Source: Enterobacteria phage vB_EcoS_IME18. From it: a DNA stretch of 50,354 nucleotides. The stretch lies in the sequence record MH051911; one strand, given 5' to 3'. Under the pieces are notes generated by a model. The model saw only the letters and a list, made by a program, of their open reading frames with translations, did no database searches and was not told the origin of the DNA. This document shows positions 12,826 to 36,308 of this stretch, piece after piece (within the stretch, counting starts at the first letter, position 1; each line of letters begins with the position of its first letter). Position numbers and translations under genes: made by a program.

Positions 12826-12999
12826 CTATTCGCAAGTGATTTCATTTGATGTGATTGGTAGCAATACGTTACCAACCATCACGAAAGTAGTAACCTGGTT
12901 CCCGGTTTCATTGCATCGCTCTTTGACCTCGTCGCAGCCGGACACTACCAGGATAGCCAGGGCGACAGCCGCCATCATGCAGATCAGAATGCGCATCAT
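12826..12999 (-). CDS. small lipoprotein, hypothetical
   Basis: Start reassigned to ATG 12997-12999 (SD GGGAG); signal MMRILICMMAAVALAILVVSGC with lipobox-like VSGC. Confidence 0.45.
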   Translation of the reverse strand: MMRILICMMAAVALAILVVSGCDEVKERCNETGNQVTTFVMVGNVLLPITSNEITCE

Positions 13000-21643: not shown

Positions 21644-21667
21644 AGGAGGCTTACGCCTCCTTTTTTT
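21644..21667. terminator. bidirectional intrinsic terminator between convergent genes
   Basis: Stem AGGAGGC/GCCTCCT, loop TTAC, T7 run on plus and U-rich on minus; overlaps last codons of spanin gene. Confidence 0.7.
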
Positions 21668-22055
21668 CGTACTTACGAATTGAAAAATAAACCATCAACA
21701 GGCCAATAAAAACGAGAGTCCACCCTACAATTGCATCGTACCAGTTCCCATGTTTTGTTACCGTGATGTTTTCAGCGTTAACCGTATTTGCCTGAATGGT
21801 TGACACCTCCACAGACTTATTGACGGATGAGTCAACCTTGCCAATATTTGAGTCACTCACCTTCACCTCTCGCTTATCCTCTGCCTTTGCTGTAACTCCT
21901 GCTAGTTGTTTCGTGTTCTCAGCGCCAACCTGCGCCGTAACATCCGGGGAGTCAGAAAGTAAACCGCTCAGAGCAGATGCCGTCGAGCAACCGGATAGAG
22001 AAATAACACCAACAGCCACTGTAATCGCAATGCACGTTTTCTTCAGTTTCATCAT
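21651..22055 (-). CDS. unimolecular spanin (lipoprotein signal plus C-terminal TM)
   Basis: N-terminal [23 protein letters not shown] lipobox and C-terminal hydrophobic [13 protein letters not shown]; last gene of lysis cassette. Confidence 0.6.
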
Positions 22056-30205: not shown

Positions 30206-32230
30206 ATGGCTTTATATAGACGCGGTACAGCATCAATGGATGCAGACGGAACGGTTCACGGAACCGACACAAAATGGAAAGACCAACTTGCTCTGATTCG
30301 AGTCGGTGCAACTATCGTATTCCTGGAGCAACCGATCAAGCTGGCGGTAATCAGCGACATCGTGAGCGACACAGAGTTAAAGGCTATCTCTACGGATGGT
30401 CAGACTGCCGCTGACGGAAAGTATGTGATCCTGCTTAACGACTCATTGACCGTTAACGGGCTTGCGCAAAACGTCGCTGAGACGCTTCGATACTATCAAA
30501 GCAAAGAGACTGAGATTGCTGGAGCATTGGATATTATTGCCGATCTTGATATGGATAACCTTAACCGCATCGTTGAAGAAATTAAGGCGAACAAATCAGC
30601 CGCTGAATCTGCACAGAATCAAGCGGAACTTGCTCGCGACTCAGCGAATGCAGCACGCGACGAAGCTAACGCCACTAAAGGTCAGGTACAGCAAATTGTT
30701 GACGGGGCGGTCGGTAGCATCAATTCAGCAAAAGACCAGGCTGTAACAGCTGTTAACTCCACGAAAGATTCAGCAGTAACCACAATCAATCAGGAAGAAG
30801 CTAGCGCGATCTCTGCTATCAACGCGGCGAAGGGAGATTTATCAGGTTACGTTAATGACGCTCAAGCGGCTGCTTCTACTGCAACATCTGCTAAAAACGA
30901 CGCTCAGAATGCAAGAAATCAAGCAGTAAGCGCAAAAGATGCAGCGGCGGCGTCTGCTCAGGAAGCTAAGGATGCAGCAAGTAGTGTTAATGCCTCAAAC
31001 CTGTTAACAAAAGATGGAAATCTTTCTGGATTAACAAATACACAAGCAGCAAGGAATAACTTGCAGGTTTTATATGCATCAAATTCTAATTTGGGATCTA
31101 CCGATCTTAACACGCTTAACAGCACTAAGGAGGGTAGGTACTATCAAACAACATCGGCTAATGCTACATCAGAGCGTAACTACCCATTTCAGGAGGCTGG
31201 TTGTCTTACAGTATTTAAAACGGGCGCTGGAAGCGTAGAGGCGTGTATACAGGAGTACACCACGTTTTCAAGCATGCGTAGATTCGTTAGATCTCTTGCT
31301 GGGACGGTATGGAAGGAGTGGAAGGAGATCTACCTGCAAGGGTCATTCCCGACTTACGGCGATATTAACGCTAAAGGCCGCGTGAGATCTGAGAAGGAGT
31401 ACCCTTCGTTCGAGTGGGTAACGACGAAAGTCGGAGACGATTTCATTGGCAAACGAGTCAGCATAGAGAATGACTCTGGTGTTAATATGTTCATGTTCTT
31501 CATGCAGAAAGAGACAACAGCAAATAGACGTGTCGTATCGTTCGCAAGACCTAACTCTACCGTATTCCACTTCGTCGGCTACAACGGTGGACTGCCTACA
31601 GATGGCAACAGTGCGCCATCAAATAACATAAACTTTAACACTCAGCCACAAGGCTGGAGGTTGGTATCAGGTGGGTGGCAAAATGCTCCTCTTGCTGGTA
31701 ATAGCTACGGGACTTTATTCACGCAGTGTATGCAAGGTGTTGCGCAGGGTGATTCGAAAAACACGGGTGATTCAGGATTATGGTATTCGCAGCGATATAC
31801 TAACACCGAATCACGCATGTTTATCAGAAATCAAACTAACAACGCAAACTGGTCCAACTGGTTCGAGTTCACTAAAACAGCGGTATCAGACGAACGCCTG
31901 AAGAATGTAAAAGGTAATTTGAATGTTGAAGGTGCGCTTGATAACATCAATCGCATGGAGTTTAAAGTATTCTCATTTAAGGACGATAAAAAAGGGAAGG
32001 GATATAGACGCGGTGTTATCTCTCAGCAGATTCGACAGATTGACAAAGAGTATACAAAGGAGATAGGCGGTTACTATCATCTAGATCAAACACCTATGCT
32101 TCTTGATGGATTGGCGGCAATAAAGGCACTTCGCGCTCGTGACGAAGAGAGCAAAAAAAGAATTTCAGATCTTGAATCAAGAATTTCCTCACTTGAGGAT
32201 ATGATCAAAAAACTAATAGAAAACAAGTAA
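30206..32230 (+). CDS. tail fibre protein with C-terminal intramolecular chaperone domain
   Basis: 674 aa; N-terminal coiled/Ala-rich region; C-terminal SDERLKNVKG motif typical of autoproteolytic chaperone domains; SD TAAGGAG. Confidence 0.65.
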   Translation: MALYRRGTASMDADGTVHGTDTKWKDQLALIRVGATIVFLEQPIKLAVISDIVSDTELKAISTDGQTAADGKYVILLNDSLTVNGLAQNVAETLRYYQSKETEIAGALDIIADLDMDNLNRIVEEIKANKSAAESAQNQAELARDSANAARDEANATKGQVQQIVDGAVGSINSAKDQAVTAVNSTKDSAVTTINQEEASAISAINAAKGDLSGYVNDAQAAASTATSAKNDAQNARNQAVSAKDAAAASAQEAKDAASSVNASNLLTKDGNLSGLTNTQAARNNLQVLYASNSNLGSTDLNTLNSTKEGRYYQTTSANATSERNYPFQEAGCLTVFKTGAGSVEACIQEYTTFSSMRRFVRSLAGTVWKEWKEIYLQGSFPTYGDINAKGRVRSEKEYPSFEWVTTKVGDDFIGKRVSIENDSGVNMFMFFMQKETTANRRVVSFARPNSTVFHFVGYNGGLPTDGNSAPSNNINFNTQPQGWRLVSGGWQNAPLAGNSYGTLFTQCMQGVAQGDSKNTGDSGLWYSQRYTNTESRMFIRNQTNNANWSNWFEFTKTAVSDERLKNVKGNLNVEGALDNINRMEFKVFSFKDDKKGKGYRRGVISQQIRQIDKEYTKEIGGYYHLDQTPMLLDGLAAIKALRARDEESKKRISDLESRISSLEDMIKKLIENK

Positions 32231-34510: not shown

Positions 34511-35037
34511 TGCGTTTATCTCCTTCGTTTACGATGAATCCATTATAGCCATTAACAGCGTTTAGTCAATCGAATACATGTAATTGGTGTGTAATTGCGT
34601 GTCTATATTGCTCAAGTTACAACCAGCATCAGCAGAATCAATGTCTTAAGTCGATTTTTATGCGATGTCTATTGCGTAACACTTGTAACCGCTTTTTCTT
34701 AGAAATACACAGATATCCATGAATAGAATCCCGATCGATTAAATTTTGAACATATATGATAGAAATTTGACGAATCAATCAAATCACCTGTTACACGATA
34801 GACAACTGTTACACAACAATAATTATATATATAAAGCTAAAATTAAATATTATCTATCTATATATATTATATAGAGTTTTTATCATATCTCCCTGCGGTC
34901 GGATGGGATCGATTTTGTAACGCCATCTCAAGTTACAAAAATAGACACCTGTTACACGAAAAAAATTGTAATCGAGCTATTGCAATAAAAGTAAACGCGA
35001 CATACAATGCAATCACACTAACGACGAGGACATGCAA
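34511..35037. promoter_or_regulatory. second AT-rich divergent control region, partly homologous to 15208..15894
   Basis: No ORF; shares exact 18-bp CTATATATATTATATAGA and a GACAACT(G/A)T(T/A)ACACAAC segment with region 1; repeated CACCTGTTACACGA and CTCAAGTTACAA. Confidence 0.5.
34980..35008 (+). promoter_or_regulatory. sigma70-type promoter for lipoprotein gene (-35 TTGCAA, 17 bp, -10 TACAAT)
   Basis: TTGCAA 34980-34985 and TACAAT 35003-35008, about 30 bp upstream of ATG 35038. Confidence 0.5.
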
Positions 35038-35265
35038 ATGAAAAAGTTAATCACCATTATCGCTGCGGCATTCATCCTGACTGGTTGCTCATCGATGCCT
35101 GAGCGCACTTGCACGGCAATTTATGAATCAGGCGGCGCGGAGTACTCGGTTTACGTTTTTGGATCTAAGATGCGCGGAAAGGAGATGGTATTGCGTGCTG
35201 GATACCCATTCTCCTTCAACTATGTATCAGAGAAAAACTTCAAATCTCACGATTGCTCGATATAA
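35038..35265 (+). CDS. Cor-like superinfection-exclusion lipoprotein (putative)
   Basis: 75 aa with signal MKKLITIIAAAFILTGC (lipobox LTGC); SD GAGGA; next to tail fibre/J genes where cor sits in T1/phi80-like phages. Confidence 0.45.
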   Translation: MKKLITIIAAAFILTGCSSMPERTCTAIYESGGAEYSVYVFGSKMRGKEMVLRAGYPFSFNYVSEKNFKSHDCSI

Positions 35266-35288
35266 AAGAAAAGCCCCGCAAGGGGCTT
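35262..35288 (-). terminator. intrinsic terminator after distal tail genes
   Basis: Stem AAGCCCC/GGGGCTT, loop GCAA, A-rich run on plus side (U-run on minus transcript). Confidence 0.6.
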
Positions 35289-35976
35289 AGTCGTACGCTG
35301 TCGTTTTGATTGCTGTTATAATATTTCCATTATTTGTGGTGTTCATTATCTGACCCGCCGCAGTGGTTGCTGCTGCGTTTATTCTCGTTGTGCTCCCATT
35401 GTACCTGCATGAACTGCCTGCTGTTGAGTTTCCTATTATGGGTTGCCCAGTTGGCAGCCTGCCAATAACAACTTGATAGTTGCCAAGTATAGTTGGAACA
35501 ACTGCGTAGCTTCCGCTGAGTGTTGTGTCTATGTTTAATCCGCCGCCAGCGTATCCAGGAGTGCCAATTGTAACCAAATCACTAAGAACTTTTGTCTCAT
35601 TTGTCAGCACTAGCTTTCCTGACGCATCCCATATCGCCATACCCCAGCTCGGTAGTGACTGCTCAAATATGGCAAATATGTAATATGTTAGTGTGTATGA
35701 TTGGTTTGCTGGATTTGTCCCCCTTATATAAACAGTTCCAACATTGGGTCCGCTTCTGAAAGTAAAGGCTGAAAGCGCGGTCCCCTGTTGCGTACTTGTT
35801 GTTTTGCAAAAAGCTATAACCGGAACACCTGTAGGTATCCGAACATATCTCTCCGCAACCTGTGAACCACTAACATTTACTGATTTAATTTCCCCTCTCG
35901 CATATAAAGCGAATGGCGTGGATAACGGGGTTATGAATGGGTTTCCGTTTACATCTATAAAAGCACCGTATGACAT
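35287..35976 (-). CDS. putative tail fibre / receptor-binding protein
   Basis: 229-aa Gly/Thr/Asn-rich ORF immediately downstream of J-like gene. Confidence 0.45.
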   Translation of the reverse strand: MSYGAFIDVNGNPFITPLSTPFALYARGEIKSVNVSGSQVAERYVRIPTGVPVIAFCKTTSTQQGTALSAFTFRSGPNVGTVYIRGTNPANQSYTLTYYIFAIFEQSLPSWGMAIWDASGKLVLTNETKVLSDLVTIGTPGYAGGGLNIDTTLSGSYAVVPTILGNYQVVIGRLPTGQPIIGNSTAGSSCRYNGSTTRINAAATTAAGQIMNTTNNGNIITAIKTTAYD

Positions 35977-36308
35977 TAATCATTCTCCAGATATGCTATT
36001 AAGTAACAGTTTGATGATGGGTGCACGTTTGGCCCAGGTGAGTTTGCTGGCGTTACTGTTATCGTATTGCCGCTAGCAATAATTTTCCTGCCAGGTCCGC
36101 TAATGGCGCCATCGTCAAGGCTTATAACGTAGTTCACACGCATACCAGGTGGTACTTGATAGCTGAACGATGCTGAATTCTGGCCTGCTGACAAAAAGCT
36201 CCAACCAACAACCGTGACAGGCTTAATTCCATAGTTATTATAAACGCCATTTGCGTCCCAAGTTGATATACCGTACGCCATAATAAATCCTCCAAAAGAA
36301 AAGGGCAT
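35976..36308 (-). CDS. putative tail protein
   Basis: 110-aa ORF between J-like gene and distal fibre gene; start/stop overlap. Confidence 0.4.
   Translation of the reverse strand: MPFSFGGFIMAYGISTWDANGVYNNYGIKPVTVVGWSFLSAGQNSASFSYQVPPGMRVNYVISLDDGAISGPGRKIIASGNTITVTPANSPGPNVHPSSNCYLIAYLEND

Follow-up and report, generated by a model that had tools for sequence, protein, structure and literature searches.

The closest described systems are small phage lipoproteins that act on the outer-membrane receptor FhuA. The Cor proteins of the temperate phages phi80, N15, HK022 and mEp167 are experimentally characterised FhuA-inactivating lysogenic-conversion lipoproteins, and those of phi80, N15 and mEp167 block both the adsorption of FhuA-dependent phages and FhuA transport (PMC11436027; bioRxiv 10.64898/2026.03.26.714494). 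Direct binding to FhuA has been proven for one protein only, Llp of phage T5, whose structure is available both bound to FhuA (PDB 8A60, chain B) and free (7QJF). Llp shares about 20% identity with Cor proteins, disulphide included (PMC9586334), Llp and the Cor proteins of T1, phi80, mEp167 and HK022 have been assigned to one structural family (bioRxiv 10.64898/2026.03.26.714494), and the Cor of the T1-like phage KanT1 resembles Llp with a TM score of 0.69 and is placed by an AF3 model on the periplasmic face of FhuA with an ipTM of 0.84 (PMC13164509). A further small lipoprotein, Rtp45 of phage Rtp, occupies the equivalent position in the receptor-specificity locus of a Drexlerviridae phage and blocks the phage's own receptor (PMC12685063); unlike Cor, it exerts superinfection exclusion on LptDE (PDB 9RPS), its receptor being LptD. 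Phage T1 itself carries a cor gene (Orf30, AAP49969; Roberts et al. 2004), recorded as “lysogenic conversion protein ... similar to N15 Cor”. In the literature we found no experiment on T1 Cor itself, and the cited functional data come from the Cor proteins of phi80, N15 and mEp167, which are about 36% identical.

We analysed the genome of Enterobacteria phage vB_EcoS_IME18 (MH051911; 50,354 nt, the whole of which is referred to here as the window), in which a first-pass annotation had read an ORF of 75 aa as a Cor-type superinfection-exclusion lipoprotein, by its position and lipoprotein signal and expressly not by sequence identity. Our main reading, to which we assign a probability of roughly 0.85, is that the phage is T1-like (Tunavirus) and this ORF its cor gene, transcribed from its own promoter and encoding a lipoprotein that blocks FhuA by Llp-like binding (Table 1). 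The feature as such is already known, being the cor of T1 unchanged: it was annotated in T1 in 2004, RefSeq versions call the ORF “Cor superinfection exclusion protein”, RefSeq and PHROG annotations name it in Tunavirus genomes by the dozen, and a paper of 2026 deals with its cassette.

Table 1 Features of the cor locus and its surroundings (positions within the window)
Feature	Position	Strand	Basis and remarks
cor CDS	35038..35265	+	75-aa prolipoprotein plus TAA stop; ORF list, PHROG 1119, NF047972, T1 identity
Ribosome-binding site GAGGA	35026..35030	+	Read from sequence; ribosome-binding site at the same place in the T1 record
Signal peptide, residues 1–16, MKKLITIIAAAFILTG	35038..35085	+	Lipobox LTGC; predicted removal by signal peptidase II
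Mature lipoprotein, 59 aa	35086..35262	+	Cys17, Cys25, Cys73, RAGYPF motif
Candidate sigma70-like cor promoter	34980..35008	+	-35 TTGCAA 34980–34985, 17-nt spacer, -10 TACAAT 35003–35008
GC-rich hairpin AAGCCCCTTGCGGGGCTT, then TTCTTTT on the - strand	35271..35288	-	Terminator scan; intrinsic terminator of the tail-tip operon
229-aa gene	35287..35976	-	Homologue of phi80 gp23, N15 gp23 and T1 Orf31; phi80 gp23 50%, E 2e-66; PHROG 425, E 6.5e-67
101-aa gene, start MAYGI	35976..36281	-	Homologue of phi80 gp22 and T1 Orf32; phi80 gp22 56%, E 2e-38; PHROG 557, E 4.5e-31
J-like central tail fibre / tail tip protein, 1139 aa	36327..39746	-	Pfam Phage_Tail_Tip, FNIII-A_GpJ, Phage-tail_3; PHROG 31
Lateral tail fibre gene	30206..32230	+	ssb/erf/exoVIII recombination operon between it and cor

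The cor gene and its counterpart in phage T1

Over a 24-kb stretch, the window is 91–95% identical to the phages LeonhardEuler, CLB_P3, ADB-2, SH2 and others, and the 1.9 kb around cor, which match 61 Escherichia and Shigella phages in total, show 97.2% identity to Escherichia phage CLB_P3 and 96.5% to T1; by these nucleotide matches, the window is a Tunavirus (Drexlerviridae, T1-like phage) genome. The gene itself agrees with T1 Orf30 at 228 of 228 nt (protein identity 100%), and it shares with the T1 gene the promoter hexamers, the ribosome-binding site and the convergence with Orf31, Orf32 and J, whereas the flanks differ by about 3–6%. Near-identity of the receptor locus to that of T1 makes it likely that this phage, too, uses FhuA.

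The distribution of differences from T1 is uneven. When the interval 35035–35267 was compared with T1, the nearest differences lay at 35034 and 35268, and in an 8-kb comparison no other stretch of about 230 nt is free of differences, neighbouring 200-nt bins containing between 1 and 22. This suggests either a recent exchange of this short piece between Tunavirus genomes or an unusually strong constraint at the nucleotide level.

The ORF list starts the gene at 35032 (35032..35265, +; 77 aa, MQMKKLITII...), whereas a start at 35038 gives a protein of 75 aa (MKKLITIIAAAFILTGC...; full precursor MKKLITIIAAAFILTGCSSMPERTCTAIYESGGAEYSVYVFGSKMRGKEMVLRAGYPFSFNYVSEKNFKSHDCSI). The ATG at 35032, in frame and two codons upstream, is an extra one in this phage and reads ATA in T1; it also stands only 1 nt from the GAGGA motif, compared with 7 nt for the ATG at 35038, and the 77-aa version was rejected on both counts. 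Because of this spacing, the invariance of the 35038 ATG in the five related phages aligned and the identical 228-nt extent (35038–35265) of the CDS in the T1 record, 35038 is the correct start, which is where the first-pass annotation had placed it.

The precursor opens with the elements of a lipoprotein signal, namely an n-region (MKK), a hydrophobic core (LITIIAAAFI) and a lipobox (L-T-G-C) ending in Cys17 (35086–35088); Gly16 and Cys17 do not vary among 66 homologues, and the Pfam model LPAM_1 scores 20.1 bits on the ORF against a cutoff of 20, in agreement with the lipoprotein signal claimed at the outset. By the lipobox rule, the signal peptide would be cleaved directly before Cys17. A regular expression for the lipobox signature, scanned over 1292 start/ORF combinations of at least 40 aa across the whole window, matched at only three loci (cor, the spanin gene and a 56-aa ORF), so that its presence in cor is not a chance event. 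In lipoprotein sorting, a residue other than Asp at position +2 leads to Lol-dependent transfer to the outer membrane; because this residue is Ser in Cor, and not Asp, outer-membrane sorting is predicted.

The two other lipobox loci are findings in their own right. One is an ORF of 133 aa (21651–22052, -; ...VISLSG/CSTAS..., the stroke marking the cleavage site) that matches the Rz-like spanin family PHROG 1804 at E 4e-44 and is a T1-type unimolecular spanin, unrelated to cor. The other is a small lipoprotein ORF of 56 aa (12826–12996, -; MRILICMMAAVALAILVVSG/CDEVKERC...), in which Asp at +2 predicts retention in the inner membrane and which matches PHROG 8628 (E 1.4e-27), a family without assigned function.

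Cor family membership and fold

Sequence homology to Cor is unambiguous, and the original caveat that the assignment did not rest on sequence identity was too cautious. The ORF matches PHROG 1119 (“Cor superinfection exclusion protein”) at E 3.6e-30 over profile positions 1–75 of 78, as well as the NCBIfam equivalog NF047972 (lamb_exclu_cor, “phage exclusion lipoprotein Cor”) with 55.8 bits against a curated cutoff of 31 (E 3.5e-15, residues 1–73 of 75); taken with the complete identity to T1 Cor, these matches uphold the Cor-type reading, and we regard membership of the Cor family as practically certain. A tblastn search of 50,697 phage records gave hits in 218, most of them annotated as Cor or superinfection exclusion, with identities of 100% in CLB_P3 and T1, 50–60% in other Drexlerviridae and in Dhillonvirus, and 31–36% in phi80, N15, HK022, mEp phages, ES18 and Fostie, the Cor proteins of phi80, N15, HK022 and the mEp phages lying at 35–36%. 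A single-sequence search of a 5.8-billion-protein set returned only close relatives of at least 59% identity; phi80-type Cor was reached only by a profile search of a large protein collection, which yielded 366 homologues, many of them named “phage exclusion lipoprotein Cor”, with named homologues in Escherichia, Enterobacter, Salmonella, Citrobacter and Klebsiella genomes. In Pfam, nothing matched beyond the generic lipobox model and, below threshold, PF24052 (Phage_lipoprotein; 18.4 bits against a gathering cutoff of 27), which was rejected. Since phi80 Cor and T5 Llp match no Pfam family, Pfam holds no Cor/Llp model, and PF24052 is a different family.

Conservation is concentrated at few positions. 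Residues M1, G16, C17, C25, G55, P57, F58 and C73 are invariant both in a 12-sequence alignment that includes phi80, N15, HK022 and ES18 and in one of 66 sequences, and within the central RAGYPF motif R53, A54 and Y56 are nearly invariant (A54 and Y56 at 90% or more across the 66). The protein thus carries the family's two mature cysteines, Cys25 (35110–35112) and Cys73 (35254–35256), and its central motif, together with a type II signal whose lipobox cysteine is predicted to be lipidated and a precursor within the 75–80 aa or so of Cor proteins. The Cor proteins of phi80, N15, HK022 and mEp167 belong to the same family and have the same length, lipobox, two cysteines, RAGYPF motif and a promoter of their own; they are 33–38% (about 36%) identical to the present protein, whose mature N-terminus is three residues shorter than theirs. 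In phi80, N15 and HK022, cor points the same way as the tail genes and is expressed from the prophage, whereas here it is inverted and belongs to a virulent phage; the inverted arrangement is also found in ES18, Dhillonvirus and other Drexlerviridae. Rtp45 showed no meaningful likeness to the Cor profile, its hit (9rps_D, E 1.5) being confined to the signal-peptide region.

Alignment with known Cor and Llp proteins, which the first-pass annotation had proposed as a check, gave the similarity to Cor described above and, once profiles are used, points to a possible remote homology to Llp. The 66-sequence Cor profile aligned to T5 Llp by hhalign with a probability of 92% and, for this single comparison, an E-value of 6.4e-7 over 73 columns, the lipobox cysteine and both mature cysteines being aligned. 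Searched against the whole PDB, the Cor profile ranked 8a60_B (Llp, “Lytic conversion lipoprotein”) first, at E 0.005 and mostly over residues 1–43. A single-sequence search of PDB sequences with Cor returned only designed armadillo-repeat proteins, which were discarded as spurious summed scores, the E-value of each repeat on its own exceeding 500.

The predicted structure agrees with these alignments. An AlphaFold2 model of Cor, built on the 66-sequence alignment of database proteins, has a mean pLDDT of 86 (94–97 over residues 21–75) and consists mostly of beta-strand. Among Foldseek matches in the PDB, 8a60_B had the highest probability (0.99) and the lowest rmsd, E-values being insignificant for so small a domain, and the top hits in BFVD were a Drexlerviridae superinfection-exclusion protein and T5-like “receptor-blocking protein” or lipoproteins. 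In the model, Cor has the small Llp-like beta fold of the Cor/Llp superfamily, with a predicted intramolecular disulphide; binding to the periplasmic face of FhuA and remodelling of its plug and of the loops EL7/EL8, as in 8A60_B, would be expected of a member. Identity between T5 Llp and Cor is about 20%, and the RAGYPF motif is not conserved in Llp. Together, these comparisons reproduce the published relation of Cor to Llp cited above.

The receptor cassette, proposed mechanism and alternatives

Directly after the J, gp22-like and gp23-like genes of a FhuA-type receptor cassette, cor converges with the 229-aa gene across a gap of 21 nt. The position originally claimed, on the opposite strand, stands with one correction: cor adjoins the gene for the J-like central tail tip protein and the two small genes downstream of it, the lateral tail fibre being encoded elsewhere. 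The same succession (J, ~100 aa, ~225 aa, cor) recurs in T1, SRT8, herni, SSL-2009a, ES18, phi80 and N15; cor is co-directional in phi80 and N15 and inverted and convergent in the other five, of which SSL-2009a is a Dhillonvirus and ES18 a Salmonella phage. For HK022, J and a co-directional cor are the only genes of this group in the record, which leaves about 1 kb between the two without annotation. The J-like protein is 43% identical to phi80 J, again above the 36% of Cor, the similarity running through to the C-terminus, and the T1 counterpart of the 101-aa gene (Orf32) has a CDS of 306 nt. In T5 the layout differs, llp being divergent from oad, which encodes the single large receptor-binding protein pb5, whereas cor is convergent to the J/gp22/gp23 cassette.

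The cassette is already in print for T1-like phages. In the BASEL study, the genes downstream of gpJ were interpreted as receptor-specificity (“bona fide RBP”) loci accompanied by cognate genes for superinfection exclusion, and each known receptor, FhuA included, was assigned particular alleles (PMC8594841); the three-gene cor cassette is present in all ten FhuA-using Drexlerviridae and Dhillonvirus phages of the BASEL set (KanT1 paper, PMC13164509). The two small genes have been read as receptor-binding proteins (PMC8594841) and, differently, as exclusion-related membrane proteins (PMC13164509). They match no Pfam or NCBIfam family (35287–36281, -), are not mentioned in the T1 tail-tip cryo-EM paper, and are closer to their phi80 counterparts (50% and 56% identity) than cor is to its own (36%). 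As a marker, cor identifies this phage as a T1-like phage of FhuA type and forms the right-hand boundary of a receptor-specificity module exchanged among small siphophages; the gene is also a candidate for building production strains resistant to T1, phi80 and T5.

Cor very likely functions by inactivating FhuA, and the Llp-like periplasmic allosteric mechanism is probable, if a degree less so. In the series of events that we infer, from the timing of expression through processing and localisation to direct FhuA binding and an allosteric switch, cor would be transcribed from its own sigma70-type promoter, independently of the tail-tip operon and convergent to it. The 75-aa precursor would be exported, lipidated and cleaved at Cys17, and anchored in the inner leaflet of the outer membrane, where the 59-aa mature protein, a small beta-fold domain probably stapled by a Cys25–Cys73 disulphide, would bind the terminal receptor FhuA from the periplasmic side. 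Bound FhuA would be switched to a state in which its surface loops refuse the phage receptor-binding apparatus, as shown for T5 Llp (extracellular site closed, 8A60). Two outcomes may follow: FhuA-dependent phages (T1, phi80, T5 and relatives) would be excluded from the infected cell, and released progeny would be spared futile adsorption to FhuA on cell debris.

The second of these outcomes could be the main selected benefit, the same FhuA inactivation serving as “lytic conversion” that keeps new virions off the FhuA of debris rather than as exclusion of competitors. T1-like phages are virulent and have no long-lived lysogen to protect, and cor has a candidate host-type promoter of its own; the two benefits are not mutually exclusive, however, and we put the chance that the debris benefit dominates at somewhat below even. 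A different proposal starts from the ORF being merely a neighbour of the tail genes and encoding an unrelated small lipoprotein, such as an outer-membrane spanin subunit or another moron. There are weak PHROG hits to Rz-like spanin families (E 0.02–0.3), but these cover only residues 1–25, in the signal-peptide region, the phage encodes its real spanin elsewhere (21651–22052, -; see above), and the matches to the Cor family, which span the full length, are better by 28 orders of magnitude. We rejected the spanin reading of cor on these grounds and consider any unrelated lipoprotein highly improbable.

The remaining alternatives concern how Cor acts. Instead of locking FhuA directly as Llp does, it could depend on other outer-membrane proteins (OmpA, OmpC, OmpF) or on the gp22-like and gp23-like proteins as partners, which we judge unlikely. 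Arguijo-Hernandez and colleagues reportedly observed in 2018 that Cor interacts with other outer-membrane proteins, and on that account the mechanism may not be a simple 1:1 Llp-like complex. In the FhuA-type cassettes that we examined, moreover, linkage of the three genes is strict, the exception being HK022, with only J and cor annotated; the two upstream proteins have been speculated to be Sie-related (PMC13164509), and the mechanism of Cor has been described as unresolved (bioRxiv 10.64898/2026.03.26.714494). BASEL analysis, on the other hand, takes the two upstream genes for receptor-binding proteins, that is, parts of the virion (PMC8594841), the phi80 record lists cor as a moron with transcription of its own, Cor and Llp have their fold and both cysteines in common, and in the AF3 model a T1-like Cor sits at the same site of FhuA on the periplasmic side (PMC13164509). 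Less likely again is that cor in virulent T1-like phages, instead of being a free-standing moron, is co-regulated with the gp22-like and gp23-like genes as a receptor module of three genes, and that its own expression is controlled through three CTGTTACAC repeats just upstream of its promoter; were this so, the action of Cor on FhuA might differ from the Llp lock, for example by requiring other outer-membrane proteins.

Transcription signals and the upstream intergenic region

The first-pass annotation had also given the gene a sigma70-like promoter of its own, and a consensus scan does find a candidate site at the expected place, with 9 of 12 consensus matches. Because such sites are common in this AT-rich region (8 in 1.1 kb, compared with 3.8 +/- 2.0 expected from shuffles), the match is weak evidence when taken alone. 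Both hexamers are nevertheless unchanged in T1, the substitutions at 34975, 34976 and 34996 falling between or beside them; the more distant relatives SRT8 and herni have -10 elements of their own (TGTGTATAAT / TGTGTATAGT) at the equivalent place, and the phi80 record annotates for cor its own -35/-10 and transcription start site. From the promoter-like site, transcription is predicted to start about 20–25 nt 5′ of the ATG.

Downstream, the 21-nt gap between cor and the convergent 229-aa gene contains a hairpin (AAGCCCCGCAAGGGGCTT, 35271–35288) with fold energies of -16.7 kcal/mol on the + strand and -13.7 kcal/mol on the - strand. With its T-run on the - strand, it is a canonical terminator of the tail-tip operon, and the T1 record places a rho-independent terminator at this hairpin on the tail-gene strand only. 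Since the + strand of the hairpin has no T-run, termination of the cor mRNA there is uncertain, and for this transcript the structure may at best be stabilising.

Several further elements were observed in the 527-bp intergenic region upstream of cor (34511–35037). A 14-nt direct repeat, CACCTGTTACACGA, occurs in three copies, two exact and one 86% (34785–34798, 34803–34816 and 34946–34959), and its core CTGTTACAC has three occurrences in the 50-kb window, all upstream of cor, compared with a chance expectation of 0.28. About 20 nt separate the end of the proximal copy from the -35 hexamer of cor, and T1 retains the CTGTTACACGA core of this copy. On visual comparison, the repeat fits none of the consensus sequences of the LexA, CRP and Fur boxes. 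The region also contains CTCAAGTTACAA twice (34611 and 34927) and an AT-rich palindrome (34824–34866); judged from their sequence, these repeats and the palindrome could be regulator-binding sites or iterons. GC skew over the AT-rich repeat region follows the direction of transcription and is uninformative on a replication origin. At the far end lies a near-consensus sigma70 promoter on the - strand (34542–34569, TTGACT-16-TATAAT, 11/12) directed towards the exoVIII / erf-like / ssb operon and, because it points away from cor, the intergenic region is a divergent promoter region.
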